64,000 nt of DNA from Nitrosarchaeum sp. (GCA_965223865.1 OZ245020.1:1664001-1728000); one strand, 5' to 3'. Shown: positions 5,283 through 61,758, counted from the stretch's first letter. Notes: generated by a model from the sequence alone, not told the origin. Program-made: numbers and translations.

Positions 5283-8200
5283 GATGTCTTTACTGATGGA
5301 ACCCGCTTGTCATTGTACGTTACTACATGGGAAACTCCATTTTTTGGATATACACCATAAATCAGTTTAGCTTTTTGTACAACAGAGTCTTTTAGTGACA
5401 CCATAATGAATTGGCTTTCCTTTGCTCTTTCTTCTAATATAGTGGATAATTTTTCAGAGTTTGGTGCATCAAGATGTGCATCAACTTCATCAAATAGATA
5501 GAATGGAGATGGTTTTAGTTTTTGAAGTGCAAGAACAAACACAATTGCAGCCAAAGTCTTTTCACCACCGCTAATCGATGTCGATTCTCGTTTTGGTTTG
5601 TTTGGGAATTGAATTAAATAAGATATTCCAGAATTAAAAATATCGTCTTCGTTTTGCAGTTCAAGCCAAGCATTTCCTCCAGTCATCTTATTGAAGATTA
5701 AACGAATTTCTTTGTCAACCTTATCAAATGCATCTAGAAATGTTTGGCGTTTGTCTTTTTCTATGTTTTCAATGAATTTTACAATAGAATTTCGTTCCTC
5801 TTCTAGTGAATTTTTACGCGTGGACATTGAGCGATATCCATAAGAAATCTCAAGATAGGTTTCAGGAGCTTTGGCATTGAGTGCATTCAAAGAATTAAGA
5901 TCAGTTGTCAGCCCTTGTACAATTGGTTCAACATCAAATGTTTCCATGTTTTTAGCAAATCCAAATGCAGATAAGATCTGACGTAATTTTGATTCGCTCT
6001 CATTTAGATCATGTAAATCACGATTTAAAGAATCAGAGTGTCGTTCTAGAGAATTGACCCGTTTTGTGAACTCTTTATCTTTATCAGTAAGAACCTTGAG
6101 TTTTTCATCGTATTCTTTTAATTTTCCTATAGAAGAGCCAGAAGTAGAAATCAATTCTTGTTCTTTTTCTCTTAGTTTCACTAATGTTTGACTTTTGAGC
6201 TCTTTTTCTTTTTCAAGAGTATTGATTTTGGTTTGTAGTTCTTCACGTTGTGAAATAAGAGAAGATTCTTCTTCATGAAGACTGTTGGCATGTGATTTTT
6301 CCCTATTTTCTTCAGTGTGTAAAGAGGTCAAATTAGAGGATTTGTCTCGATACTCGTTCATTATTACAGTATACTGTTTTTCAATTTCGGATTTTTTTTC
6401 ATTAATTTTAGATAGTTGATTTGCAATACGGGTTTGTTCCCCACTTGCATAATTTTCTTCAACTATTGCAATTCTTTCATTCAGAGATTCGATATGAGAC
6501 TCGTAAGTAGTTATTTCAACTGGAAGGTTACTATTTTTTTTATTTAATTCAGAAATTCTTTTAGAAAGTTGTTCCTTCATTTTAATGGCAGAGGAGATTC
6601 TTGATTTTAGATTAGAATAATTCTCATCAGTTGAAGCAAATCCCTTTTCTGATATTGAAAGCCTTTCCACATAGCTATGAATTGAACCTTCTATTTTCTT
6701 CAAAGAGTGTTTTTTCTTTAACACATATTTTTTCAGTAGGCTAATTGAATGAAGGAGTCCTTCAATATCTGTACTCATTGAGATGATTTTTGTTAATTTT
6801 GAGATTTTTGAGTTAATATCAATGATAATTGCACCGCCTTTAGCCTCAAAATACTCTCCATTTATGGTCACTGCCTTGTAGCCAAGTTTTGATATTCTAT
6901 GTGCTGCCTCTTGAGTTTCAGTTAAGATCACATTACCAAACAAAAATGTCTTTAGTGCAGAATATTTTTCGTTACATTTTACATAATCAGATAAAACTCC
7001 TAAAACGGCAGGATCTTTTGGGAGGTTCAATTTGAATTTAGGAATTGCATCAAAAGGGATAATTTTCAGTTTAGGCAAATTTTTAGAGCGAACAACTTCA
7101 GCGATACTAAGCAAAGTTGCAAAGTCTTGAACAACAATTGATTTAATCCAATCAGAACTTGCTGCAAGTATAGGACGTTCATACTTTTTGTCCCAAGAAA
7201 TCATCTCATAGACTAGTCCAACGATTCCAAGTTTTTCAGCATCTTCTTTTAATTTAGCAATTGTATAATCTTCATGCATAATTCCTTTGACAGTTTTAAT
7301 TTTTGTTTCATATTGTGCTGCAGCTTTGCTAGATTTTTCTAAAATTAAATCGAGTTCTTCAATATCATGAAGAGTTTTAGATTTTTTATGATTTAATTTT
7401 GTAATTCTTGTTTTGAGTTCCTTAATAGTTGCATTATGATTATTGAGAATAGATTCTAATCTTATTTTTAGGTTTGATAGTTTCTCGATGTCTAATTCTA
7501 ATTCAGTTAATTTTGAGGCGTTAAATTTTACTTTGGCATCTAACTCTTCTTTTTCGTGTTCGGCCTTCGATAATTTTAATTTTACATCATTTATCTGGTT
7601 TGATAGCAATTTTATTTTATCATCTATTTCAGATTTTTTTGATGCAATAGCAGATTGTTCATTTAAAATTTTACTTCTTTCAGAATCGATTAATTCCAAG
7701 TCATCGTTGATTTTTTTCTTTTTAGAATCTGTTTGATCCAAGGTATTTTGGATTTGTTGAATTTTTGATTCAAGCTCCTTGCGAGAGTGCTCAATAGATT
7801 CTAGTTCTGTTTTAATTTCGGGTATTCTTTTATCTATTTGTTGGACCCTTTTAGTTGATGCAACTATTGAGCTATTATCAATTTCATATTGCTCCATTGC
7901 TGCACTTAATTCAGAGTCAATGGCTGCCTTTGCTTGGCTATAATCATCTGCTTGAGCCATAAGTTTTGATTTTTCTGATTCTAACTGAGAGATTTCATTT
8001 CTAATTATGCTTCTTTCTTCCTCAGATTTCTTAATTTCAGAGGAAATATTTGTCAATGTTTCCTCTTTTGTGCATTTTTTACTTGTAACACCCTTGAGTT
8101 TGTTTGCTGCAGCAATTGCTTTGTAACGATTTAATTCACGCTCAAGTAGATCATACCTGAGTTTTTGGTTTCTTTCCTCTTCAAGCTCATCAATTCTTTT

Positions 8201-8803
8201 CTTAATTTCACCCATCTTTGCAAGAGCGATTTCTAATCTTCTATCAGCTTCATCAAGTTGCTTAATAGACTGGGCCTTTTTTTCATCAAAATAGGATAGT
8301 CCAATCAGATCCTCTATTGTTTTTCTTTTTTCTTCAGATGTAAATTCAGAAATTCGAGTAACAGTTCCTTGTTGAACTGCATTTAATTGTCCCAAACCTG
8401 CATTGGCCATATCAAGAAGATCAAGTATGTGACTTCGATTTGTTTTCTTTTTATTTAGATAGTAAGTATTTTCTCCATTTTCATCCATCTCCCTTGTTAT
8501 TTCTACAACATCAGAATCTACTGGAATTTTTCTATCAGAATTATCAAAATGAACACTCGATCTTGCCATTTTTGGACCACGTCTATTTCCTTCTATATCA
8601 TGAATCAGAGAACGTAGTTTGTCTACTCTCATTATTTTTGGTTTATTTTCTCCCATTGCAAAGATGATTGCATCTAAGATGTTACTTTTCCCAGACCCGT
8701 TGGGTCCTGAGATGGAGATCAATCCAGGTTCAAAGTTGACTATAGTATTTTTAAATCCAAATGACTTGAAACCAAAGATCTCAACTTTTTTTACATGAAC
8801 CAA
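5279..8803 (-). CDS. smc: Chromosome segregation protein SMC
   Basis: GFKSF, GPNGSGKSN, long coiled coils with hinge, ISGGEK, FDEVDAHLD. Confidence 0.97.
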   Translation of the reverse strand: MVHVKKVEIFGFKSFGFKNTIVNFEPGLISISGPNGSGKSNILDAIIFAMGENKPKIMRVDKLRSLIHDIEGNRRGPKMARSSVHFDNSDRKIPVDSDVVEITREMDENGENTYYLNKKKTNRSHILDLLDMANAGLGQLNAVQQGTVTRISEFTSEEKRKTIEDLIGLSYFDEKKAQSIKQLDEADRRLEIALAKMGEIKKRIDELEEERNQKLRYDLLERELNRYKAIAAANKLKGVTSKKCTKEETLTNISSEIKKSEEERSIIRNEISQLESEKSKLMAQADDYSQAKAAIDSELSAAMEQYEIDNSSIVASTKRVQQIDKRIPEIKTELESIEHSRKELESKIQQIQNTLDQTDSKKKKINDDLELIDSERSKILNEQSAIASKKSEIDDKIKLLSNQINDVKLKLSKAEHEKEELDAKVKFNASKLTELELDIEKLSNLKIRLESILNNHNATIKELKTRITKLNHKKSKTLHDIEELDLILEKSSKAAAQYETKIKTVKGIMHEDYTIAKLKEDAEKLGIVGLVYEMISWDKKYERPILAASSDWIKSIVVQDFATLLSIAEVVRSKNLPKLKIIPFDAIPKFKLNLPKDPAVLGVLSDYVKCNEKYSALKTFLFGNVILTETQEAAHRISKLGYKAVTINGEYFEAKGGAIIIDINSKISKLTKIISMSTDIEGLLHSISLLKKYVLKKKHSLKKIEGSIHSYVERLSISEKGFASTDENYSNLKSRISSAIKMKEQLSKRISELNKKNSNLPVEITTYESHIESLNERIAIVEENYASGEQTRIANQLSKINEKKSEIEKQYTVIMNEYRDKSSNLTSLHTEENREKSHANSLHEEESSLISQREELQTKINTLEKEKELKSQTLVKLREKEQELISTSGSSIGKLKEYDEKLKVLTDKDKEFTKRVNSLERHSDSLNRDLHDLNESESKLRQILSAFGFAKNMETFDVEPIVQGLTTDLNSLNALNAKAPETYLEISYGYRSMSTRKNSLEEERNSIVKFIENIEKDKRQTFLDAFDKVDKEIRLIFNKMTGGNAWLELQNEDDIFNSGISYLIQFPNKPKRESTSISGGEKTLAAIVFVLALQKLKPSPFYLFDEVDAHLDAPNSEKLSTILEERAKESQFIMVSLKDSVVQKAKLIYGVYPKNGVSHVVTYNDKRVPSVKTS

Positions 8804-8978
8804 TGATAATATTTGCCAAATTGGTCGGATAATCGATGGTTAACAAGTTTAGTTGACACAATTGCATAATTTTTCTTGTTACACTATCAAATTTTTCGTA
8901 ATGCACAATTAGAAAGATAAACCTGGTCAATCCAAAAAAATCTCTACCTATAATTATCAAGGATCTCATAAATCATCA

Positions 8979-15679: not shown

Positions 15680-16610
15680 CAACGGATTTTTGCTCAGCTT
15701 CCTTTTTTTTAAATCGCCTTGATTCAATCAGAATAACGATTAGCAGAAATACGAAAAGCCAAGGTAAGAACAGAATTTCCCCTGCAACTGAATGGAATTC
15801 TTCCCACTGTTCGGCATCAGTTGTAACTTTGAGGGCATACCACGAAAGAGAAAAGATTCGAATTACATTAACACCAATAGTTCCGCATATTCCTATTGCA
15901 AAGTAGATAGACTTTCTTCCTCTTGCAATGTTCATCTTTAGTAAAAATGCTCCCATCACTAAGGAATAGATGATAATGCTGTGCACACCAGCTGATGGCC
16001 AAAAGACCTGAAGTACCATTGGGCCATAATCTCCTCTGAGGAACATGATATTATCCCTAGCTGTTGCAACACCAAGATCAAATACAGTCACTAACCAAAC
16101 ATTTGTTTGCACAAGATATGGAACCACATACTGCAATGGACCTAGTGAATCATACGGGAAGAATGCATCAAGGGATAAAATTATTGCACTACCTCCCAAA
16201 AAGATAGGACCGGCAGGAGCTATACGAATCCATCTAGAACCAAAGAAGATACTAAGCGCTGTCATGATAAACAGAGTCATTACAACAAAATCCCATAACC
16301 ATGTCCAAGAATAGATTAATTGAACGCTGTAAGATTCTGCTGATTCTAAAATGTAATCTCGAAGACCAAACTCCAACCCAACAAGATATGCAATTACACC
16401 TGCTGCAATTGGAATAACAGATAACAATCTCTTTTTGGATATAACAATCTTTAATCCTACTAGTTCTGCTACAACAAAAACAAGGGCAAAAAGAAAACCA
16501 CCCCTTCCCTGGTTCCAGCTTAGACTAAAGGTGTCAGGAAATACAATCAATGCAAACAAAATAGGGCTGGAGATGATTCCGATTCCTGCCATTAGATTCC
16601 AATTTTGCAT
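15666..16610 (-). CDS. artG: Thaumarchaeosortase (exosortase/archaeosortase family)
   Basis: Polytopic membrane protein with VFWPSAGVHS, NVIRI, FHSVAGE at the sortase catalytic positions. Confidence 0.8.
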   Translation of the reverse strand: MQNWNLMAGIGIISSPILFALIVFPDTFSLSWNQGRGGFLFALVFVVAELVGLKIVISKKRLLSVIPIAAGVIAYLVGLEFGLRDYILESAESYSVQLIYSWTWLWDFVVMTLFIMTALSIFFGSRWIRIAPAGPIFLGGSAIILSLDAFFPYDSLGPLQYVVPYLVQTNVWLVTVFDLGVATARDNIMFLRGDYGPMVLQVFWPSAGVHSIIIYSLVMGAFLLKMNIARGRKSIYFAIGICGTIGVNVIRIFSLSWYALKVTTDAEQWEEFHSVAGEILFLPWLFVFLLIVILIESRRFKKKEAEQKSVAKNN

Positions 16611-16671
16611 TATGATAAAGCTAAGAATTGTCCCATAAATAGTTCAACGTCTGGATTTAGTATAAGACATG

Positions 16672-17829
16672 CTAGAAAAAATCAGCAATGGTCTTTTGTT
16701 TTAATAGTTTGATCATATTTCCCTGAGAAAGCCACTCGTTTTTGCTGACGCTCATCTTTTTTGTTGCAATATCAAGGGCATTTTCAAAACTATCAGCTGT
16801 AAGATAATTTTGATTCATTGCAGAGCGTATACCTTCCCGGACCTGCCAGACGCCTACTGGAATAGCATATTCGGGCCTAATTTCTCTTAGAATCAGCACC
16901 CCTGATTGTATTTCGTGTTTGGCTAGGTATTCAGCAACTGCTAGCTTTGCAGCAAAGTAAGCTCCTGCAATTGCTGGTGGGTGATCAATTCCTCTTGCAT
17001 CCTCATGGTCTGAGCCAAATCCCAAGATTCCATTTGAATACCACGCCTCTATCATCTCATATATCCACCTATGAGGAAACAATATTATCGAAAATATATT
17101 GCCTAGATGCTCAAAACTAAAAACTCTGCAAGAGTCAATCAAAGAATAGCCCAGTATTTCATCTGTAATGGATTTTGAAATGATGTCATCAGTTGCAGTA
17201 ATGCTCCATCTTGTTGGAACAAGCTTTCTGTCTTTTCCCAGCATTCCAATGCTAAAGCATTTTTGAATCTTTGAGATTTGGATTCCTGAATTGTACAAAT
17301 TTAAAACTGCGTCTTGTGCTTTGAGATCCTTGTCGTAGAATATTTTTTCAATTGACTTTTCAGCTGAAGAAATTGAAAACTTTGCAGACTTTATCTTTCT
17401 AACAGGACCAAAAGGTGCACTTTCTCCATCAAGTGAAATGTTTGATGATGTAGAGTTGTGAAACTCTAGATCAGAATCAGCAGGTTTTGTTGACATTGCA
17501 AGCTCTTGCAGGTTTTCAATGTATCTTCCCTCAGTTTGATCAACTGAAATTTTTTTTATTCCCCTAACAAGGTTGAGTCTAAAGTTTACAATCTCTTCTA
17601 GAGATTTTCCGCTCCACTCTTCTGGACTGTCTAATAATTCAGTATCGCCATGAACTGGTGGAACCATAGGTCCAACAAATACAGAAGGATAACTGTAAGA
17701 GCCAACAAATACTGAAGGTGGGCTAGAACCGCTAACAGAATCTGAAGATATGAAATTTCCATACTTTGATAAATTCTCATGCCATTTTGCAAGAATTGAT
17801 CTCCTAATATCCTGAGAATTTGCATGCAA
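16672..17829 (-). CDS. nreA: Nre-family PCNA-interacting DNA repair protein
   Basis: SPPSVFVG, LVPTRWSITATDD, PVGVWQVRE; C-terminal PIP box QKTIADFF. Confidence 0.9.
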   Translation of the reverse strand: MHANSQDIRRSILAKWHENLSKYGNFISSDSVSGSSPPSVFVGSYSYPSVFVGPMVPPVHGDTELLDSPEEWSGKSLEEIVNFRLNLVRGIKKISVDQTEGRYIENLQELAMSTKPADSDLEFHNSTSSNISLDGESAPFGPVRKIKSAKFSISSAEKSIEKIFYDKDLKAQDAVLNLYNSGIQISKIQKCFSIGMLGKDRKLVPTRWSITATDDIISKSITDEILGYSLIDSCRVFSFEHLGNIFSIILFPHRWIYEMIEAWYSNGILGFGSDHEDARGIDHPPAIAGAYFAAKLAVAEYLAKHEIQSGVLILREIRPEYAIPVGVWQVREGIRSAMNQNYLTADSFENALDIATKKMSVSKNEWLSQGNMIKLLKQKTIADFF

Positions 17830-17903
17830 TGAAAAATTACTGTTAAAATGAGCCTATTAACTTGCCTAATTAGTCAATTTGACACATAGTTAACATAACA
17901 TGT

Positions 17904-18860
17904 TTGAGAAACAAAAGGGGAAGTATGACAATTAACAGAATAGTCTCTTTTTTGCCTAGCGCCACAGAATTACTGTACGAGCTAGAAGAACAAGACAAAA
18001 TTTATGGTGTCACACATGAGTGTCATTACCCAACAGATGCAAAATCAAAACCTCAAGTCATTTCTTCAGTTATTGATTCTGAAAATTTATCCAGTAAAGA
18101 AATTGATCAAAAAACATGTGAGCTGTTAAACCAAGGAAAAGACATTTTTGTTTTAGATGAAGAAAATCTCAAAAAAGCAGATCCGGATCTAATAATCTCT
18201 CAAAAGACATGCGAAGTTTGTGCTGCATATACAAATCAGGTTAACAAAGCAGTTCAAATTTTACAAAAAAGACCATTACTTTATTCAATGGACCCACACA
18301 ATCTACAAGAAATACTATCCTCTGTAAATGAGCTAGGAAAGATATTGCAAAAAGAAGACAAGGCAAGAGAGATTGTAGAATCTTTGGAAAAAAGAATAAA
18401 GAGAGTCTCAGAAACCAAGAGAGATGTCAAACCCAAAATATTGGCAATAGAATAGATAGAGCCGTTTTTTACTGCAGGTCATTGGATTCCTGAAATTATA
18501 GAGTTAGCTGGGGGTCAAAATATGATTAGCAAAATAGGTGAACATTCTAGAAGATTAAACATGCAAGAAATTATAGAATCAGATCCAGACATCATATTAT
18601 TGATGCCATGTGGTTTTGATACGCAAAGAACCATATCTGAATATAATATTTTAAAAAACAACCAGGAATGGAATTCCTTAAGAGCAGTAAAAGACGGAAA
18701 TGTTTTTGCAGTTGATGCAAATTCTTTTTTTAGTAAGCCTAGCATTAGGACAGTTACTGGCTTGGAGATAATAACAAAAATAATTCATCCAGAAAACATA
18801 GAACTAAAAGTTCCCGAGGAGTCATTTTTACAGATTAGGACAAAATCATTGTCTGAGTAG
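17904..18860 (+). pseudogene. Cobalamin/Fe-siderophore ABC substrate-binding protein (BtuF-like) interrupted by one in-frame TAG at 18453-18455
   Basis: RIVSFLPSATE, GVTHEC, CEVCA, then LAIE*IEPFFTAGHWIPE continuing in frame to PCGFD..FSKPS. Confidence 0.85.
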
Positions 18861-19002
18861 ATAAATTTTAAACAAATCTTTGGTTCAAATTTGAATGGGG
18901 TACAACATGTAGGGGAATATAGATAGAGACATACATTTTACACTAAATTTTGTGCCTAAAACAATCAGAAATTGCAACAGGTTTTACTGATTTTTTGGAT
19001 GG

Positions 19003-19017
19003 AAGATTTTGCACTAA
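19003..19017 (+). repeat. AAGATTTTGCACTAA intergenic motif, copy 1
   Basis: 14/15 match to 19663-19677. Confidence 0.7.
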
Positions 19018-19112
19018 GATTTATTATTGAATTTTTTAGATCTGATGATTGGTTAAAATCCACAGGTACTTGATAATACTTTAGAGATAAATTTCGGTTC
19101 AAGTAGATTTGA

Positions 19113-19619
19113 TTATTTTAAAACTTTGTAGTATAAATCGACTAATTGATCATACTTTACAGTTTTAACAAATTCAAGTTTTGTCTCGTTTTCTATGTTC
19201 TTGAAGAGAGGTTTTCCTTTGCCTAAAATAATTGGAATGACAGATATTATTATCTCATCTATAGCTCCTTGATTAAGAAAAGATGCAATAATTTGTGCTC
19301 CACCAACCAACCAAATGTTTTCTCCTGCATCTGGAAAACCATCTTTTACAAATTTTTCAACATCCAATAAAAATTCAATATTTTCATCTTTATTTTGAGT
19401 AGAACTAGTAAAAACAAATGATTTTTTGTCTTTGTATGGATATTCTCCAAAAGTTAGTACTTGATCATAGGTGGTTTTACCCATAATCACAGTATCTATT
19501 GAGTCATAAAATGCACCATATCCAGATTCAGTAGCGTTTGGTAACCAATCAATTCCATCATTTTCCCTCGCTATGTATCCATCCAAGCTTGATGCGATAT
19601 ACACTAGAACTGTTGTCAC
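19113..19619 (-). CDS. Dihydrofolate reductase / RibD C-terminal family protein
   Basis: IASSLDGYIA, MGKTTY, WLVGGA, IDE, PIILGKG. Confidence 0.92.
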   Translation of the reverse strand: MTTVLVYIASSLDGYIARENDGIDWLPNATESGYGAFYDSIDTVIMGKTTYDQVLTFGEYPYKDKKSFVFTSSTQNKDENIEFLLDVEKFVKDGFPDAGENIWLVGGAQIIASFLNQGAIDEIIISVIPIILGKGKPLFKNIENETKLEFVKTVKYDQLVDLYYKVLK

Positions 19620-19662
19620 AAGAGTTGTAATTGTTTCAGAGTTATAATGTTATATTCAACTC

Positions 19663-19677
19663 AAGATTTTGTACTAA
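19663..19677 (+). repeat. AAGATTTTGTACTAA intergenic motif, copy 2
   Basis: 14/15 match to 19003-19017. Confidence 0.7.
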
Positions 19678-19723
19678 ATTTCAATAGGAAAATTAAATCA
19701 TTCTTTATTCTAAAAACTAAAAA

Positions 19724-20371
19724 TTAATTCCAATCATGATCCCACACTTCATCTGGAAAAGATCTATTGCTAATATCAATATCCATATCAATATCCAAAC
19801 TATATTCAATCAAGTCTGGAAATTTACAGTCTGTATCTTTGGGAATAACAATTGACTCATGATGGAACATGTAGTATTGAACACCCTCTTTTTCTGTGAT
19901 TCCTTGGTATTTTAGAACCCCTAACACTTTTGATGAATCAGATTCATAAAAAGACAGATTAGAAAATCTGTCCGACAAATGTATCAAACCACAGTTAACT
20001 ACAAAAGTTTGATTTTTTTCTATTGGTGTAACATACGTAAGATTATCTTGTATTTTTGATTCCATGTTCAGTTTTCCATCTGTTACAAAATAATTAGAAT
20101 TGAAGGTGACCTGAATTGTCCCATCATTGTTTTGCATGATGTGAGTCATTGACGCATAGTATTTTCCATCTCTATCCACTCGATCATAATGAGTGTCCCC
20201 TCCATTTCTAAATCCATCATTTTCTATCATGTATTCAGCATCTTTTAGTACATTTTTGATACTGCGAACATCTAGTGAATCAGTTGAATCATTATCTGAA
20301 TAAATTAAGAAAAATATTCCAGATACTAAACTTCCAATGAGTACAATCAACCCTATTGCAAACTTGTCCAA
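19724..20371 (-). CDS. Hypothetical membrane-anchored protein
   Basis: 215-aa ORF with N-terminal TM helix. Confidence 0.75.
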   Translation of the reverse strand: MDKFAIGLIVLIGSLVSGIFFLIYSDNDSTDSLDVRSIKNVLKDAEYMIENDGFRNGGDTHYDRVDRDGKYYASMTHIMQNNDGTIQVTFNSNYFVTDGKLNMESKIQDNLTYVTPIEKNQTFVVNCGLIHLSDRFSNLSFYESDSSKVLGVLKYQGITEKEGVQYYMFHHESIVIPKDTDCKFPDLIEYSLDIDMDIDISNRSFPDEVWDHDWN

Positions 20372-20458
20372 ATCTTATCTTCAAAATTTTAAGTGAAGTT
20401 AAATGTGAATCTATAACGGTGCAAATGAGGCTCAAATTTTGCATCAAATCCTAAATTG

Positions 20459-20480
20459 AAGACCAACTAGAGTTGGTCTT
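20459..20480. promoter_or_regulatory. Perfect inverted repeat AAGACCAACT-AG-AGTTGGTCTT
   Basis: 10-bp arms, 2-nt spacer, intergenic. Confidence 0.6.
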
Positions 20481-20496
20481 ATCAATGAGACAACTA

Positions 20497-20535
20497 CACT
20501 AGGAATCAGCTACAATCTTGGGTATGAAAATGGAC
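20497..20535 (+). repeat. ~39-bp intergenic repeat, copy A (CACTAGGAATCAGCTACAAT..GTATGAAAATGGAC)
   Basis: Aligns with 23174-23211. Confidence 0.8.
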
Positions 20536-20777
20536 GCAATTAATCAAAACAAAATACTTTGATAGAATGCAATAGTGAATGTTGTAATCGCCACACTAAA
20601 CACAAAAATTCCATATGCAGAATATTTGATTATTTTATTCACAGTATTAATTCACATTCAGAATATTTAAGGGCAATTTTGTAGAGACTAATCTTTTTTA
20701 GAGAATATGTTGGTTCACTGTAAAAATTGAGAGATTATCAATTTAAAAAATAATAATATCAATTACAATAAAAAATT

Positions 20778-21095
20778 GTGACAATATATTCAGTTAAAGC
20801 TAGATACATTGAAGAAAAGATGAAGGAATTTTATCAGAAACTAACTGATGGTACAATTCAGAACCAGAAACCTGATGGGCAGGAGATAATTAATTCAATG
20901 AAACGTGCTAAAATAACTGAACATGATGTAATTCAATGGTCTGAGATGTGTTTTTGTTCCCCTCCATTAAAACATGAACGTGAAACTGTGTACAATCAAT
21001 TTCTAACAGACATGGAAATTACAGTCATTGATGATTATGTAGAGTATGAGGGAGAATTGTTTATGGATTTTTTAGCAAAACAAAGTAAAGAATAA
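20778..21095 (+). CDS. Conserved hypothetical protein
   Basis: 105 aa, QKPDGQEI..WSEMCFCSPPLKHERETVY. Confidence 0.75.
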   Translation: MTIYSVKARYIEEKMKEFYQKLTDGTIQNQKPDGQEIINSMKRAKITEHDVIQWSEMCFCSPPLKHERETVYNQFLTDMEITVIDDYVEYEGELFMDFLAKQSKE

Positions 21096-21101
21096 TTCAA
21101 A

Positions 21102-21337
21102 TCATGGGAATCTGTTCTTTATCCACTTACATGAATTTTCGTCAATGGTATGAGTACCATTATCATAGATATACAATGACAAAGAACCACTTCGCTCAAA
21201 GCCCATTGCACAGTTGTACAAAATTATTCCCAAATGATCTGCTGTCTGTGCAACGTAAAAGGAATAATTATTGTGATTAGAACAATTGTAGTTATCAGAA
21301 CTATCGCAATCAAAATAACAAAATTTCTAGTTTTCAT
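21102..21337 (-). pseudogene. Frameshifted small membrane-anchored protein (MKTRNFVILI.. / ..YDNGTHTIDENSCKW)
   Basis: ATG overlaps the upstream TGA; frame 1 gives a signal anchor then stops; a shifted frame continues to TGA at 21102-21104. Confidence 0.6.
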
Positions 21338-21342
21338 TTTCT
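21326..21342 (-). repeat. 17-bp junction repeat AGAAAATGAAAACTAGA
   Basis: Identical to 21964-21980. Confidence 0.9.
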
Positions 21343-21975
21343 TCTCCAGTATAATGTCAAACCAATTCCTGAACCTGCATCTATTACTATTGCACTAATT
21401 ATTATCGGCAAAGTAAAGCTATACTCGTTAAAAATTCCAATACCTGAACCAAAACCCATGCTTTCTTCTGCTAGAAACCTTTTCTCAGATGCTAGTCTCA
21501 ATGATTCGTCATCAGAATACGGATCATGTGGAACAATGATTTTTTCTTCTTGAGGATCTTCATCTAGTAATGTTTGACTTCCAATTACTCTGGTAGAACA
21601 CATGTTAGTTTGACCTACAGAATTTTGTTCAGTAATGCCCCAGCCAAACACTTGATAGGTATTTCCTTTACTATAATTAGGATCACAAGAATTAAGCATT
21701 CTAGTTTCATTTTCACTAAAGTAGAGATTTACATTTGTCATAACAAAATATCCTTCTTTCAAATCTCCTTTCTGAACAGAATGTATCATAAAATGCACTT
21801 TTTGAAAATCTGAACCATCTTCTGTTTTGATCACGGTTCCTTGAAATGCCGTATCTGCATTTGCTAATGTCTCAAAGTAATCAGGATTTGCAGCACAAGA
21901 ACATGCAAAAGATTCTTGATATACTAAAGTCGATATAAGTAAAACAGATACAAATATGAATAATCTAGTTTTCAT
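21334..21975 (-). CDS. Secreted, C-terminally anchored protein with TIMP/NTR-like domain
   Basis: Signal peptide ESFA followed by CSC..ADTAFQGTV; C-terminal TM-like segment and WRRK. Confidence 0.75.
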   Translation of the reverse strand: MKTRLFIFVSVLLISTLVYQESFACSCAANPDYFETLANADTAFQGTVIKTEDGSDFQKVHFMIHSVQKGDLKEGYFVMTNVNLYFSENETRMLNSCDPNYSKGNTYQVFGWGITEQNSVGQTNMCSTRVIGSQTLLDEDPQEEKIIVPHDPYSDDESLRLASEKRFLAEESMGFGSGIGIFNEYSFTLPIIISAIVIDAGSGIGLTLYWRRK

Positions 21976-21980
21976 TTTCT
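21964..21980 (-). repeat. 17-bp junction repeat AGAAAATGAAAACTAGA
   Basis: Identical to 21326-21342. Confidence 0.9.
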
Positions 21981-22925
21981 CTTCTCAATTAATTCTAATA
22001 ATTCCTCAGGCAGACTGTCATACTGTTTTTCATATTGTTTAATCATGTCTTGGGTACTTTGATCATCAAAGTAACCATGAACCATTTTCCCAACAATATT
22101 TCCCAAGTCTCCTTGTTTGTTCATCTCTGAGAAAAACTTCCATTGGGATTCTGGATCGACAATACCAGTCATTGATTCTCTTTCTAACTGTCTGCGTTTT
22201 TCATTCAATGTTTGAGAGTAATCATAAATAGATTGACGCCATGGATCTAGTACTATCTTGCAAAATTCCCCATTGGAATAGTTGGATATAATATCGTCAT
22301 AGTTGTGTGTTGCAAATCTATAGTCGGTATCACCATCAAAACAATGTAAAAATAATGATTCTTTGTCTGTTATTTCATGGGTGCATGAACTTAGATGAAA
22401 GTATGTTGATGCACTCTGATTTTTACTATTTATTGCAAACAATCCATAATGGATATTGGATTGATGACTTCTTTCATCTTGAATGGATAATTCAAGATTG
22501 TATGGAGCATATTTTTTTGTAAATATTTTATAATTTTCAGTCTGTGAGAGTTTTTTCATGTGCAGAGGGATCATCCTCTCAAAATCACATACGGATGATG
22601 GTTCTAAATCAAATCGTTCTGCCCAATGAGTGCTATTTTGGAATGGATAGTACCCTTCAAGTAACTTTACATGTTCAATTTCTAATCCCAGATAATCTGA
22701 AGAAATTTCTTTTAATTTTTCTTGCATTTGTTTTTTTGATTCATCAAATTTTTGTTCATTTCCTATCAATTGGTATTTTTTTGATAATTCATTAATTTGA
22801 ACTAGTTCGTTAGAATGCTTTTCAAATGATATTGATTTTGGAGAATCAGGATTTTGATAAATAAGAAATAAAGTAGAAGATACAAGGAACGTCATTATGA
22901 CAATTATTTTAAATTCAATTTTCAT
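21972..22925 (-). CDS. Hypothetical membrane-anchored protein
   Basis: Start taken at MKIEF inside the junction motif; N-terminal TM helix; 317 aa. Confidence 0.78.
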   Translation of the reverse strand: MKIEFKIIVIMTFLVSSTLFLIYQNPDSPKSISFEKHSNELVQINELSKKYQLIGNEQKFDESKKQMQEKLKEISSDYLGLEIEHVKLLEGYYPFQNSTHWAERFDLEPSSVCDFERMIPLHMKKLSQTENYKIFTKKYAPYNLELSIQDERSHQSNIHYGLFAINSKNQSASTYFHLSSCTHEITDKESLFLHCFDGDTDYRFATHNYDDIISNYSNGEFCKIVLDPWRQSIYDYSQTLNEKRRQLERESMTGIVDPESQWKFFSEMNKQGDLGNIVGKMVHGYFDDQSTQDMIKQYEKQYDSLPEELLELIEKRK

Positions 22926-23082
22926 TTCCATGTTTTCCATAACAATCATCTGGCGACGCAACCTTTGTTACAATCTCCAAGTCATATTGAGGAATATCAA
23001 TAATTATTGAATCAACATATGCATAAGCAACTCCAGTAGAGAAAACTGAAGAAAAAAGTACAAGGAGCAGAGGAATTTTCAA
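22915..23082 (-). CDS. 55-aa signal-peptide ORF, probably truncated (MKIPLLLVLF..DDCYGKHGNEN)
   Basis: TTG start, AYA cleavage-like site, stop falls inside the junction motif. Confidence 0.55.
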   Translation of the reverse strand: MKIPLLLVLFSSVFSTGVAYAYVDSIIIDIPQYDLEIVTKVASPDDCYGKHGNEN

Positions 23083-23173
23083 ACAATGTGACTCAATTTA
23101 GGATATTCATAAAGTGTTCTGATGTTTGTTCTGTTAAAAAGACGGTTAGTTCAAGACTCTACAAGTTAAACCC

Positions 23174-23211
23174 CACTAGGAATCAACTACAATTCGAGTA
23201 TCAAAAGGGAC
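23174..23211 (+). repeat. ~38-bp intergenic repeat, copy B (CACTAGGAATCAACTACAAT..GTATCAAAAGGGAC)
   Basis: Aligns with 20497-20535. Confidence 0.8.
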
Positions 23212-23291
23212 AGAAATAAGATAAAAATCAATTTTGATAAAAATAAGAATATGTTAAAAGAGTAAAAGATATAATTTTGTCAATGGTTTTG

Positions 23292-23748
23292 ATGAAAACT
23301 TTCCTTATCGGACTGTCTGTTTGTTTGCCTATTGCAGTAACATCAGAAGTTTTTGCAGAGACCATCATTCCATATAGAGGAATATTTGAGTGTGGGAGAT
23401 TCCAGATATTTTACTGATATTGGAAGGTTTTTAGTTTTTGAGGATATTGTGACTGGTAATGGAGAAGTAATTTGGGTTCCAGATTAAGGTGATGGCACAG
23501 GAGGTTATGAAATTAGTCGTTATACAATTTCTGACGATATTGGAAACAGTATTTCTTTTGAAGCTAAAGAAATATTTTATCAGGAATATGCTAATCATAA
23601 ATTTACCGTTGGACAATATGAGTGGAAAATTCTTAATGGTACAGGCAAGTTTGTAGGAGCTACCGGTCAAGGAATGGATCGTGTATGGTACAAATTATCT
23701 GATATGTCATATAGAGGAATTTCGTCAGGAAGTATTATTCTTGAATAA
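23292..23748 (+). pseudogene. Degraded secreted beta-barrel protein (dirigent/allene-oxide-cyclase-like)
   Basis: Signal peptide MKTFLIG..VFA, one frameshift or deletion, one internal TAA, then WKILNGTGKFVGATGQG. Confidence 0.65.
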
Positions 23749-24018
23749 TTCTCTTAGCAATCCAAGATTTACTTAAAGACGATCCGAATCTTTAAATTCA
23801 AACTTTTTCTGGGAAATAATTTTTGCTCGATCCGCTTTAGGGACTTACCATATTATTCATATAATGAAATCTTGTCAATACTTTATTGTAGATTTTAGTT
23901 TTCTTGTTTTGTTGCAAATTCTTTTTGAGATACCAATGTATACTTATTAATTCCCAATCTCTTTCTTTCCCCCTAATAATCATGTTCATGATTTTTCTTG
24001 ATTTCGTCTAAGGTTCAC

Positions 24019-24456
24019 TTACTCTATTCCCTTGGTAATGAGGACAGGGCATTTTGCATGTCCTATTACATTACTTGCAACACTTCCCAAGACAATCTTT
24101 CTAAAACCTGTTCTGCCATGAGACCCCATAACTATCAAATCAACATTGTTGTTGTCTGCATAAGATACAATACCATCAGCCGATGATGGATTGTGGATTA
24201 CTTTTATTGACAATTGAATATTTTTGGACTTTGCCTTTTCTTCTAGATTTTTAAGCATTGCAGTAGCATCTTCAATCTGTTCATCTTGCATTTCTCCAAG
24301 TCGTTCAATGGAAACTCCAGAAGAATCTCCTAATTTTGCCTGCAAGACAGTTAACGCTGTCAGTTTTGAATCGAATTTCGAGGTTATCTCCAATGCCTTT
24401 TCAAATGCCTTTTCTGAGTATTTAGAACCATCAAACGGGACTAGAATATTTTTCAA
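24019..24456 (-). CDS. Universal stress protein (UspA family)
   Basis: ILVPFDGS, DLIVMGSHGRTG, LGSVA, CPVL. Confidence 0.95.
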   Translation of the reverse strand: MKNILVPFDGSKYSEKAFEKALEITSKFDSKLTALTVLQAKLGDSSGVSIERLGEMQDEQIEDATAMLKNLEEKAKSKNIQLSIKVIHNPSSADGIVSYADNNNVDLIVMGSHGRTGFRKIVLGSVASNVIGHAKCPVLITKGIE

Positions 24457-24726
24457 TACGTGGTTGTTTATTTTTTTGAATTTATATCCTTTGAATAATT
24501 TTTTCCTACCTATCTGATTTTTTTTGTTAAAATTTCACCATGATTTTTTTAAAATACTAATACTTTACTCATGAGAGACCAAATTCTACATTTTTTTAAA
24601 ATTATCAAATAGATTTTTTTATTTTGATGAGACATGGCCTGTCATTGCCGAGGATTTTAGAATTAAAATCATTATACAACTACAATGTTCAGGTCTAGTT
24701 GCTCTAGATTTTGGGAATAAGAGAGT

Positions 24727-25191
24727 TTATGCAGATTCTGAGATGTCATCTTGTAAGTTGACTACCTTGAATATTTTGACAACGTAATCCCCTTCAAAAA
24801 AGTTTGTTACTTCTCCAGTGTCCATATTCACATCTCTTACCCGGAACTTGTATTCGTAAGAACCGTTATCTTCCACATCAACTTGGGCAACATGTATTGG
24901 GTCATCCCCATTTTCTTCATTGAAGAATTGTATAATGACAGGATAGTCTTGTGCATGATTATCTATTTTGCCTTCAACATACGCCCAAGGCAGAGTATTG
25001 TCCTTTGGAATGTTTAGCAGCATGGTTGTCTTTTCAATACTAGTATCATCACTGTGTGGAATAACTGTGGTTTCTGCAGTTTGAGATTGTGGTTCTGCAA
25101 GAGAGTTTGGCATTACTGCGACTGTAAAGAGCACTCCAACTGAAAACAATCCCATAATTAGAACTGTGTTTCTTGAAATTCCACTTTTCAT
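24727..25191 (-). CDS. Secreted hypothetical protein
   Basis: Signal anchor; YPVIIQF..GSYEYKFRV..FEGDY. Confidence 0.75.
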   Translation of the reverse strand: MKSGISRNTVLIMGLFSVGVLFTVAVMPNSLAEPQSQTAETTVIPHSDDTSIEKTTMLLNIPKDNTLPWAYVEGKIDNHAQDYPVIIQFFNEENGDDPIHVAQVDVEDNGSYEYKFRVRDVNMDTGEVTNFFEGDYVVKIFKVVNLQDDISESA

Positions 25192-25547
25192 GAGGTTTTT
25201 CCTTTTTTGTGTTTTAAAAGAATTGCTCCAAATTTACACCTAATAGAAGGATAATTTCCAGAAACTAAGAGAGCATTCCAAGTGTGTTCATATAAGATAT
25301 TAAAAGAATCGTTTGTCCCAATAAAGCCACCGGGGCGCTCATCAAGTTTTATCGAACCTAGATTATTTTGAATATCTAAAATAGTATTTGGGATATTTGA
25401 CATGTAATTTCCAAGCAGAATAAATGGAGCAAATACTAGACCTGTTCCTGCTGCGCCAATCATCTTCAAAAAATCGCGTCTAGAGAGTTCATTATTTCTC
25501 TCTTGTTTTTTAGTCTACAGAGAACAGCTTTTATGCTGTTCCGACAT
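25188..25547 (-). pseudogene. Remnant of a Tat-exported protein (in-frame TAG at 25515-25517)
   Basis: MSEQHKSCSL*TKKQERNNELSRRDFLKMIGAAGTGLVFAPF. Confidence 0.6.
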
Positions 25548-25635
25548 GGTCTATAATATGTATTTCATATCTAAACTATGAGAAACAATTTTTTGAATTG
25601 ATGTTATGATTGGAAAAATTCATTAATCAATAGTT

Positions 25636-26121
25636 TTAGGATTGTGGGTTTATTTTGCATTCTACTTTGAGTGATTTAACAGTTGTATAGTACGTAAGCA
25701 CAAGTACTCCAATTGCAGCTATTCTTATTGGAATCTCAAAATTTGTCAGAAAAGAGGATGCTGTAGCTCCTACAGTTCCAAAAGTAGAGATTACTGCAAA
25801 TCCAATAGGACCACAGCTACATGCACCTGCAGCAGCACCAATTATTGAGCCAAATACTCCTCCACCCATTTTCTTTTTTGAGCTTTTCAGAATATTGATT
25901 CGATAGACATTCATTGGAATTACCAATGCAGACAATCCAGACAAAATAACAATTAATGAAAATCCAATTTCTGTTCCCTTTGGAATATGACTGACTACAT
26001 AGGGTTCAAGAAAAACATACTCAGAGATTATCAACAACCCCATAAGCATGGGTAAAAAAATTGCAGTTGCCAGTGCAATGTATCGGTGATTGGAAAATAC
26101 GAGTTTGAGTGTGTTTGTCAT
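25636..26121 (-). CDS. Membrane protein with CSC motif
   Basis: About 4 TM helices, GACSCGPIG; 1-bp gap after the DsbA-like gene. Confidence 0.75.
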   Translation of the reverse strand: MTNTLKLVFSNHRYIALATAIFLPMLMGLLIISEYVFLEPYVVSHIPKGTEIGFSLIVILSGLSALVIPMNVYRINILKSSKKKMGGGVFGSIIGAAAGACSCGPIGFAVISTFGTVGATASSFLTNFEIPIRIAAIGVLVLTYYTTVKSLKVECKINPQS

Positions 26122-26122
26122 T

Positions 26123-26797
26123 TTATATCATAGAATCTAGTACTTGCTTAAAAACCGAATAAGGTTGAGCTCCTCCTATTTGTTGCTGACCATCAGGGCC
26201 TACAATGAAGAATCCAGGAGTGCCTCGTACCCCATGTTTTTTTGCCTCATCAATATTATGTTGAACTCTTTTAGAGTATTTTCCAGAATCAAGACAGTTT
26301 TCAAACAATTCCATATCAAGGCCTAAACTAAATGCAAATGCTTTTAGGCGTTCAGAATTTGCCCAACCATTATCAATTTTTGATTCTTGGGAATTGTACA
26401 GTATATCATGATACTCCCAGTATTTTCCTTGGTCTTCTGCGCAGTATGATGCCTGAGCAGCTCTAGGTGAATCTCTACCAAGAAAAGCAAGATCAACAAA
26501 AACAAAGTTTGCCTTACCAGTATCTACATAATTCTCAAATATAGCAGGTTTTGTGTTATGATACCAATTATAACATTGATGGCATTGATAATCACCAAAT
26601 TCCACAATAGTAATTGGCGCAGAAGGGTTTCCCAGAATTGAAGAACCCATTGCAGTTGAAATGGTGCCATGTGTTCGGCTCATATCTAAATTAACAGTTT
26701 CAGATTGGGACGATACAGAATAAGATGCAACGATTGCAATGATTACTGCAGTAACCACTGCACCTATTACAAGCCCCTTTCTCATATCAAAAAACAC
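26123..26797 (-). CDS. DsbA-family thiol-disulfide oxidoreductase
   Basis: EFGDYQCHQC, CAEDQGKYW, GTPGF; N-terminal anchor. Confidence 0.92.
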   Translation of the reverse strand: MFFDMRKGLVIGAVVTAVIIAIVASYSVSSQSETVNLDMSRTHGTISTAMGSSILGNPSAPITIVEFGDYQCHQCYNWYHNTKPAIFENYVDTGKANFVFVDLAFLGRDSPRAAQASYCAEDQGKYWEYHDILYNSQESKIDNGWANSERLKAFAFSLGLDMELFENCLDSGKYSKRVQHNIDEAKKHGVRGTPGFFIVGPDGQQQIGGAQPYSVFKQVLDSMI

Positions 26798-26816
26798 TGA
26801 AATTTGTTTAAAAAAC

Positions 26817-33178: not shown

Positions 33179-33461
33179 GTGTGAGCTGGAGCACGAAATG
33201 CTGCTACGGCAGAGGAAACTCCTCCCTCCATACAGGAAATATGATCCGGAGATGGATAATCAGAGATGGTTGGCAACGGAGCAGAAAAAAATCCGACCTG
33301 GCGCACGATGATGGCAAAACCTGAGATTTCCAGAGAAGGAATGAAAAAGCCGACCCATATGGAGCAAAGCCAAACAGAACCAAAGGTTCCTGTACCAGGT
33401 TCAGGTAGGCTGCAAAGCGCAATATCGTGAAAACAGAAGGAGGGTTACTCCCAGCACACAC
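33179..33461 (+). ncRNA. rnpB: RNase P RNA
   Basis: GAGGAAACTCCTCC and AAACAGAAGGAGGGTTACT (P4 halves); terminal GTGTG.GCTGG/CCAGC.CACAC P1 pairing; raised GC. Confidence 0.95.
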
Positions 33462-57045: not shown

Positions 57046-57617
57046 CAGTTTGAAAGTTTGAAGGAATTCATAAAAACGTGCCGGAGCTCAGAGCCATTAG
57101 TTTTACTTCATCTAAAGTCATTACTCTAACTCTTCCTCATTGCTCGGCAAGAATAGTAAACTAGTATTTGATAATAAGATAATGATCGAGTAGAAGATCG
57201 ACTAGATTTCAACCTTATTACTAAGCGGGTTTGCATACAATTCAATTATTTCTAATTCCAGAGGAAATATCATCTCTTTACAGTGCTACAAAAGCAAATT
57301 TAAAAAAATCCAAAATATATTCGGAGTCATCCACACAAGTGCAGGATCTTATGTAAAATATTTTTTTGTTGAACAGTCAGCTTCAAAGTTTTCTTTTGCC
57401 GTCTACAAAAAAACATGTTTTTGTTTGTTTCATAAAAGAAAAAGTAAATAATTGCATATATTTTAGATGTTAACTTTGTTAATAATAGTAACAAAAAATC
57501 AGGCAAAATTATCCACAGATTTAATTTTTCATGAATCCTATCTGTTTTAGTATAGTTTCAGGTTATGATGTCTTTTATTATCTACCGGGCTCATTAAATG
57601 TGAACCCGATAGGTAAA

Positions 57618-57691
57618 TGGGATCGGCGAGATTTGAACGCGCGACCTCTGCGTCCCAAACGCAGAATCATACCAAGCTAGACCACGATCCC
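57618..57691 (-). tRNA. tRNA-Pro (TGG), no intron
   Basis: GGGATCG/CGATCCC acceptor stem, CTGCG-TTTGGGA-CGCAG anticodon arm, TTCAAAT T-loop. Confidence 0.97.
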
Positions 57692-57766
57692 AGTAAATCG
57701 TAAAATTTGCCCAATTTAAGCTTGACAGATAATGATTTTAAAGGCTTACAAAAGAACACAAAATTG

Positions 57767-61623: not shown

Positions 61624-61702
61624 GACTGTGATGGAAGATTGGCAAATGCCATTAGAACCGGAGTTACTGTTCTGGAATTTAGGCATGTTGCCCATCACAG
61701 TC
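61624..61702. other. Long intergenic stem-loop (candidate structured RNA)
   Basis: GACTGTGATGG/CCATCACAGTC, GGCAA-ATGCC/GGCAT-TTGCC and AGAAC/GTTCT nested stems. Confidence 0.7.
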
Positions 61703-61758
61703 TATTTGAAATTAATTAAGAATCTAATATATTTAATGCGGTATAATCAAGAATAACA

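Follow-up and report, generated by a model that had tools for sequence, protein, structure and literature searches.

Casposases are homologues of Cas1, and the casposons that they insert are thought to be ancestral to the adaptation module of clustered regularly interspaced short palindromic repeats (CRISPR), with solo casposon ends proposed as steps towards CRISPR arrays (PMC4779613). Solo ends have been described in Methanosarcina mazei (Krupovic et al. 2016), together with complete relatives that have 14-bp duplications and tandem arrays that share one duplication (PMC4779613). Across M. mazei, Aciduliprofundum boonei and Ca. N. koreensis, the published record includes solo ends, shared duplications in tandem arrays and leader-guided targeting (PMC4779613, PMC8464041, PMC6563490). 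Here we describe a full copy of a genome-wide ∼100-nt repeat at positions 18869–18969 (+ strand) of a 64,000-nt stretch of a Nitrosarchaeum sp. genome (GCA_965223865.1 OZ245020.1:1664001-1728000). This stretch, hereafter the window, corresponds to C1:1664001-1728000 of the assembly referred to as G000. We regard the copy with high confidence as a casposon end, and overall the locus is probably the relic left end of a family-2-type casposon, with scars at an insertion hotspot.

Family 2 has members in A. boonei and M. mazei and includes NitNCS1-C1 of Ca. Nitrosotalea okcheonensis (PMC6563490 supplement 3, PMC8464041), and the census in PMC6563490 counts one family-2 element in Thaumarchaeota. 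Its known targets include tRNA 3' ends (PMC6563490 supplement 3, PMC4779613). Family 1 (NitAR1-C1; ef-2 of Nitrosopumilus/Nitrosarchaeum) has been reported from Nitrosarchaeum (PMC12097351).

Like the solo inverted repeats of M. mazei, the window copy is a single end at a target site, beside a conserved target motif and without casposon genes (PMC4779613). The two cases differ in number, with three solo ends given for the cited M. mazei strain and 19–25 matches per genome here, and in the target motif, of which M. mazei keeps only a CGCA tetranucleotide, whereas a 20-nt leader is found here at unrelated loci and is absent from empty sites. With family 2 the repeat shares a linked casposase whose C-terminal extension and sequence place it closest to the solved structure 6opm, an inverted repeat that starts GGGG/GGGTATAG, a duplication of 14–15 bp, and one copy at a tRNA 3' end; it departs from that family in that no casposase was found in the window or genome, a polymerase is only hinted at in one relative's locus (L106), and the majority of copies lie away from tRNA genes. 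Family 1 occurs in the same host group, and its relic ends precede the leader in three G000 copies, but it differs in its inverted repeat, in its duplicated segment (ATTGATAAAGAGT) and in its casposase of 347 aa without a C-terminal helix-turn-helix (PMC8464041, PMC6563490).

An initial annotation of the window had read six motifs in successive spacers (starting at 18935, 19003, 19661, 20433, 20488 and 23151) as one family of recombinase sites analogous to integron attC or pdif modules. Those systems are similar to the present locus in having short sites among unrelated genes in a variable array, and differ from it in enzyme class and site architecture. Sites of the attC type consist of imperfect inverted repeats able to form a hairpin, on which an IntI integrase acts beside attI; here, no consensus fold was found in the 12 aligned copies, no integrase was found in the window, and the copies are direct and not self-complementary. 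In pdif modules, paired Xer sites of ∼28 bp (two 11-bp arms and a 6-bp spacer) are inverted around each module; the six motifs have the same orientation, and no such dyad was seen by reading.

Although relics of this kind are known, the setting of the window feature is new, with unusual traits in its high copy number, its long conserved leader at unrelated loci and the existence of repeat-bounded elements that hold cargo only. No title or abstract opening in our literature search indicated that this family of repeats, or solo ends in many copies, had been described from Nitrosopumilaceae, although paywalled papers and supplements may hold such reports. The interest of the case lies in a family-2-type end present 19–25 times per genome, at the edges of strain-variable islands, in a genome where no casposase was found; the ends also provide many natural target sites for testing leader recognition by casposase.

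Architecture of the repeat and its link to Cas1

The window lies in an archaeal genome of 2.0 Mb (34% G+C) and was compared with five genomes of the same genus (G001, G002, G003, G004 and G005), among which G004 is the closest relative (∼90% identity in the flank). The window copy has the architecture of a casposon end, the repeat is linked to a casposase in relatives, and a variable island starts at the end. The family was discovered via a locus at 1360k in G004, where a conserved block precedes the motif as it does at window position 18935, and the genome was then scanned. The search model, R1, is a sequence-only model of the ∼100-nt repeat and was run on G000, G004, G005 and 38 other genomes of the family. 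It matches 18869–18969 (+) with 62.1 bits (E 1e-18, model positions 3–104); by nhmmer the same copy has E 6e-16. It was aligned with 11 other copies.

The blocks of the repeat are, in order, the leader GGTTCAAATTTGAATGGGAG, the segment CACAACRTGTAT, then ATGGGGATATAGTTAG, ∼15 variable bases and ACCCACGTGGAAA or, in a subtype, AAGATTTTGCACTAA; the leader measures 20 nt, the segment 13–15 nt and the terminal inverted repeat ∼40–50 nt. In the window, the leader-like block GGTTCAAATTTGAATGGGG (18882–18900, +) falls on near-invariant columns of the 12-copy alignment and lies outside the inverted repeat. The segment GTACAACATGTAG (18900–18913, +) matches the position of the 14–15-bp target-site duplication in complete elements, and the terminal inverted repeat (18913–18963, +) is of the ATTTT.CAC-TAA subtype, its inner part being the first motif of the initial annotation (18935–18950). 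The copy matches the casposon end seen in relatives and adjoins target sequence (18882–18913), with no cas1 or polB in the island behind it. Hallmarks of an entire casposon were not found, namely a Cas1-family casposase and an inverted repeat pair in the window and a family B DNA polymerase in the island.

R1 found 19 matches in G000 (about ten of them full) and 25 in G004, none in the complete same-genus genome G005, and no more than a single weak match in 6 of the 38 other family genomes; within the island it sees a single copy, at 18869–18969. All 11 sites of CCCACGTGG in the genome fall outside open reading frames (ORFs), against an ORF coverage of 82% of G000 obtained with an ORF proxy. 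At some sites (e.g. C1:1066998–1067100) copies stand back-to-back around one CACAACRTG segment, and the leader is missing between such junctions. One subtype copy, in G003, starts 8 nt past a genuine tRNA-Leu gene. Furthermore, the leader resembles the 3' end of tRNA-Glu(CTC), with 17 of 23 bases alike as counted by eye. A tRNA gene or fragment at the window copy was considered and set aside, as ARAGORN called no tRNA gene there and the leader merely resembles a tRNA-Glu 3' end. A structured RNA was likewise rejected: the 12 copies gave no consensus RNA fold, the region contains no Rfam family, and a CACAACRTG hairpin noticed by eye has no compensating changes.

The link to Cas1 comes from relatives. 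In G004, inverted copies of the repeat at 470401 (+) and 481301 (−) enclose 10.9 kb (G004:C1:470401-481301). Both ends of this element adjoin the same 15-bp direct repeat, AGCACAACGTGTATG, in the position of window segment 18900–18913, and the leader lies outside, on one side only. The element encodes the C-terminal half of a truncated Cas1 (PF01867, 1.4e-22), together with two universal stress protein (USP) genes, a DUF389 gene, a TFIIB-like gene and a helix-turn-helix gene. The best solved relative of the Cas1 fragment is 6opm (residues 220–401, E 2.8e-41), which is the M. mazei family-2 casposase (PMC8464041).

Nitrosopumilus and Nitrosarchaeum assemblies frequently contain homologues of this Cas1; 359 confirmed stretches yielded 79 loci that were kept. 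Of 40 Nitrosopumilaceae loci searched with the repeat model around these homologues, 30 contain the repeat, with 47 matches in 578 kb; these 40 of the 79 loci were all selected by cas1, and 39 of them have ammonia-oxidiser titles. At 13 of the loci the first repeat copy faces cas1 from 1.3–7.2 kb downstream; many of the copies form back-to-back junctions, as expected of tandem insertions.

One locus, L106, encodes a 414-aa Cas1, apparently intact, that matches 6opm over residues 3–402 (E 1.9e-69). Judged by its length (∼400 aa), a predicted C-terminal helix-turn-helix and its nearness to the M. mazei and A. boonei enzymes, it appears to belong to family 2. The same locus has an OLD-type nuclease and a 929-aa ORF with a sub-threshold match to family B polymerases (PF00136, E 0.009) and no match among solved structures. 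The repeat terminus, in turn, is similar to the repeat published for NitNCS1-C1, a family-2 casposon, GGGTATAGATGAGGAC... (PMC6563490 supplement 3). G000 gave no Cas1 (PF01867) match at E up to 0.01, nor did any of the 16 ORFs of the window, and its copies are therefore relics, or mobile only with an enzyme from outside.

Paired ends occur in G000 as well. A stretch of 11.7 kb (C1:1337.3–1349.1k) is bounded by inverted copies and by a 14–15-bp direct repeat that again takes the position of window segment 18900–18913, and it contains cargo-type genes only (a hydrolase, an FAD monooxygenase, a beta-lactamase-fold protein, and TetR and HxlR regulators), without cas1. Elsewhere in the genome, the region G000:C1:1055000-1081000, beside tRNA-Val, has repeat copies at 1055.4k, 1056.4k, 1067.0k (back-to-back), 1068.6k and 1080.3k and includes a USP paralogue with 87.5% DNA identity to the window USP gene; it is probably a large casposon graveyard.

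The strain-variable island and its motifs

Using window positions 16600–26800 as the query against the same-genus genomes, we found that the island behind the solo end (18964–25640) varies between strains, supporting part of the initial annotation. Its flanking blocks, an Nre/periplasmic-binding-protein block (to ∼18836) and a block from ∼25650, are 6.8 kb apart in G000 and 182–217 bp apart in G005, G002, G003 and G001. In G004, homology ends at 18922, inside the inverted repeat, and resumes at 24017, with 10.7 kb of unrelated DNA between the same left end and the USP gene. Window 19522–19671 matches a contig of a further genome, G006, with 91% identity, and 19663–19840 matches G004 at 1360k with 87% identity; these two homology blocks overlap exactly in the third motif (19663–19671). 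Homology thus breaks at motifs, at 18922 and, from both sides, at 19663–19671.

A similar pattern was seen at other copies in G004, 12 of whose 25 matches were fetched, each with 1.5-kb flanks. In 9 of the 12, flanking sequence orthologous to G000 (85–99.6% identity) was present on the leader side only; three copies also match on the inner side, but at a different G000 locus, and 3 of the 12 have no high-identity flank. Four G004 copies (at the periplasmic-binding-protein locus, 1200k, 484k and 1532k) match G000 copies in position and have unrelated DNA behind them.

Within the island, a 168-aa RibD_C/DHFR-like gene (19113–19619, −; PF01872 7.7e-16, PF00186 2.4e-6) has a paralogue 75% identical at C1:1873.9k. 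A predicted membrane or secreted protein of 215 aa without a family match follows (19724–20371, −), and a relative of its gene in G004 sits directly behind a full repeat, with the same junction. Next is a block of ORFs of 105, 213, 329 and 55 aa without a Pfam family (20778–23082), and then a USP gene common to G004 (24019–24456, −; PF00582 3.4e-34); USP genes are also found within the G004 casposon relic. The DHFR-like, 215-aa and USP genes are candidate cargo, and we consider the case for and against the island genes having arrived as casposon cargo to be evenly balanced. That motifs bracket the DHFR-like gene, the 215-aa gene and the 20.5–23.2 kb block is correct by position.

All six motif strings proposed initially were found where they had been placed, on the + strand. 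They do not form one family: one is part of the complete end, two are likely fragments, one is an unsupported member, and two belong to another repeat. R1, which picks out the ∼100-nt repeat genome-wide, does not pick out the inner motifs, so that the motif scan suggested at the outset succeeds for the former and fails for the latter. The concern that the motif might be no more frequent than chance divides in the same way, with a short consensus unenriched in the window and the ∼100-nt repeat around the first motif significant. For ATTTTGYACTAARWTT at ≤2 mismatches the window has 5 matches, compared with an expectation of 2.2, and at least 5 are obtained in 12 of 100 shuffles; for AAGATTTTGYACTA at ≤2 mismatches the corresponding values are 9 matches, 3.5 expected and 2 of 100 shuffles reaching 9. 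The 2.0-Mb genome has 3 exact copies of the 12-mer ATTTTGYACTAA, with ∼3 expected from our estimate based on base composition, and their clustering is unusual, two of the three being 660 bp apart in the window and a one-mismatch copy lying 71 nt from the first.

The second motif (19001–19022, +) is a likely sub-terminal fragment of the same inverted-repeat subtype. Its first 17 bases (19001–19017) are identical to the G003 repeat after tRNA-Leu, and 15 bases are identical to a repeat 0.9 kb from cas1 in locus L122. The third (19661–19682, +), at the junction of the DHFR-like and 215-aa genes, is also a likely sub-terminal fragment, with 15 bases (19663–19677) identical to the full inverted repeat at 658k of G004. 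In G006, a solo CAGACCCACGTGTAAATC lies 8 nt past a stop codon and 30 nt before the start of homology to the region of the 105-aa gene. From their sequence, the 19003 and 19661 motifs are more plausibly than otherwise decayed or recombined fragments of casposon ends. The fourth motif (20433–20450, +) bears a weak likeness, 10 of 14 bases fitting the sub-terminal consensus by our count, and is absent from both the R1 and the AAGATTTTGYACTA matches.

The fifth and sixth motifs are copies of a separate direct repeat of ∼45 nt (20488–20540 and 23165–23216, both +) that differs in sequence from the first four. Its cores, 20497–20540 and 23174–23216, fit the pattern at 20 of 20 bases, with 0 expected by chance. 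No further copy was found in the genome at ≤4 mismatches, and in 60 other family genomes there were 24 three-mismatch hits outside G000 versus 21 for a reversed control; the only weak relatives are at G000 C1:129.4k and at 17907–17966 of L106. Short ORFs starting from ATGGACGCA of the repeat run for 10–20 codons, and a loose likeness of its GGGTATGAAAATGGAC part (GGGTAT..GGAC) to the family-2 repeat terminus is only suggestive. The 215-aa and 329-aa proteins were considered as paralogues that might have given rise to the pair, but their likeness is weak and N-terminal only (E 2.9e-4 over 40 aa), and this origin was discarded. A perfect 7-bp hairpin, GACCAACTAGAGTTGGTC, stands at 20461–20478, just 5' of the first copy.

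Competing explanations and the provenance of the leader

According to the explanation that we favor, a casposase would cut where the leader meets the duplicated segment, inserting the element there. Repeated insertion at one pad, then decay, deletion and recombination between repeat copies, would leave cargo genes and repeat fragments, with the 19003 and 19661 motifs among the latter. Several observations weigh against this explanation. The window has one end, with no partner repeat or casposon gene in the island, and a solo end would not reveal a duplication; at the right-hand side, neither an inverted repeat nor a duplication was found at 24.0 kb or 25.64 kb. The inner motifs lack the terminal GGGGATATAG and go undetected by R1 (1.2 bits, E 9.9 for 19001–19036), and all motifs share one orientation, whereas tandem casposons should leave back-to-back repeats. 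Among relatives, the 10 kb examined for L106 yielded no partner end for its apparently intact element, and G005 has an intact 331-aa Cas1 yet no copy of the ∼100-nt repeat; in our reading, this Cas1 would belong to another casposon family.

The leader raises a difficulty of its own. Two empty sites in G000, opposite G004 copies (1142k and window 61.7k), are without it, so the leader travels with the inserted DNA, which is not accounted for by a simple model in which the target was already in the chromosome. At the second of these sites (window 61700–61745, empty in G000), the G004 insert of 5.1 kb starts with ∼70 nt, then a full repeat copy. An imperfect 13-nt direct repeat (9 of 13 bases by our count) borders this insert on both sides, but no second inverted repeat is recognisable at its far end, a further point against the favored explanation. 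At the G000 copies at 283k, 1349k and 1475k, a copy of the ef-2 3' end and a family-1 casposon end (TAGAAATCCCCC...) directly precede the leader, which suggests that the landing pad may be carried by other mobile DNA. A search for a leader native to family-1 casposons, over 20 kb around the intact Cas1 of G005, recovered no leader and no family-1 end. Ends of ef-2 of ∼25 nt with TAGAAATCCCCC are present at loci other than ef-2 (C1:282.97–283.05k, 1349.12–1349.19k and 1142.17–1142.24k), the true ef-2 ending at 1476000.

A bolder extension is that leader, duplicated segment and inverted repeat together form a portable landing pad that spreads, is re-used by successive casposons and enables the exchange of cargo alone. 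DNA bounded by repeats would then be captured without cas1 or polB, the 11.7-kb element at C1:1337.3–1349.1k being an example. We consider this doubtful. If true, casposon ends would constitute a gene-cassette system of ammonia-oxidising archaea, their re-use as landing pads would explain part of the flexible genome of these abundant nitrifiers, and the cores 71 nt apart (18935 and 19006) could exemplify the solo-repeat arrays proposed as CRISPR forerunners.

Among the alternatives to a casposon relic with scars, the one that survives best keeps 18869–18969 as the only real relic and attributes the inner motifs to chance in AT-rich spacers and the island to unrelated transfer and flank recombination. 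We consider it unlikely, although it would account for the unenriched short consensus in the window, for repeat-model E values above 2 at the inner sites, and for island proteins that, the USP excepted, are unrelated to casposon-bounded elements. Against it stand exact identities of 17 nt and 15 nt between inner motifs and full repeats in other genomes, two independent breakpoints that overlap within 19663–19671, and the G004 locus, in which a full repeat immediately precedes the 215-aa gene and the junction is the same.

A tyrosine recombinase (XerA-like or integron-like) stacking cassettes at att- or dif-like sites, as first proposed, is very unlikely. The part of that proposal that stands is the reading of the motifs as scars, here left by the ends of a mobile element for whose enzyme the window has no gene; indeed, none of the 16 ORFs was identified as an integrase. 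The part that falls is the integron or Xer (pdif) type, as the linked enzyme is a Cas1-family casposase. The motifs do share an orientation between unrelated genes, and the genome encodes four tyrosine recombinases and has a classical element of ∼47 kb at tRNA-Glu(CTC) with a 21-nt att repeat. Yet the repeat accompanies Cas1 and not integrases, just one PF00589 gene being located no more than 10 kb from one of the 19 copies; complete elements combine inverted ends with a 14–15-bp duplication, in the manner of transposons; and no hairpin-forming consensus was found. A model with attL, attR and attP sites was given up after the repeat proved to be linked to Cas1 and to form inverted ends beside a 15-bp duplication.

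A role as an operator, promoter element or Orc-binding box for neighbour genes is also highly improbable, the palindromes TTCAAATTTGAA and CCACGTGG, the intergenic position of all copies and a CCACGTGGAAA part that presumably resembles archaeal origin recognition boxes being outweighed by an inner-side gene that converges on the repeat in 5 of 10 full copies, by orientations and gene distances that vary from copy to copy rather than being fixed as for a transcription-factor site, by copy numbers of 19 and 25 versus 0 within one genus, and by a single cdc6 gene (383.5k) without a copy nearby. The absence of the repeat near this cdc6 gene also led us to reject a replication origin.

Other features of the window and genome

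The classical element at tRNA-Glu(CTC) occupies G000:C1:1856140-1903351, where the tRNA gene is followed by a 408-aa tyrosine integrase gene, with the 21-nt copy of the tRNA 3' end 47 kb on. A second tRNA-Glu gene, at G000:C1:67266-67360, has an apparent T-loop insert and is not called by ARAGORN. The window also contains an archaeal RNase P RNA (33181–33459, 191 bits) and a tRNA-Pro(TGG) gene (57617–57692), both ordinary.

Beside the island, a periplasmic binding protein (PF01497; window 17904–18860) is split into ORFs at 17904–18455 and 18522–18860, which may reflect a frameshift or a broken gene. Window 25375–26800 is duplicated on contig C3 of the same assembly (7441–8887) with 91% identity. 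In the non-coding sequence upstream of the 161-aa gene, the C3 copy has a run of more than 20 T, compared with six in the window.

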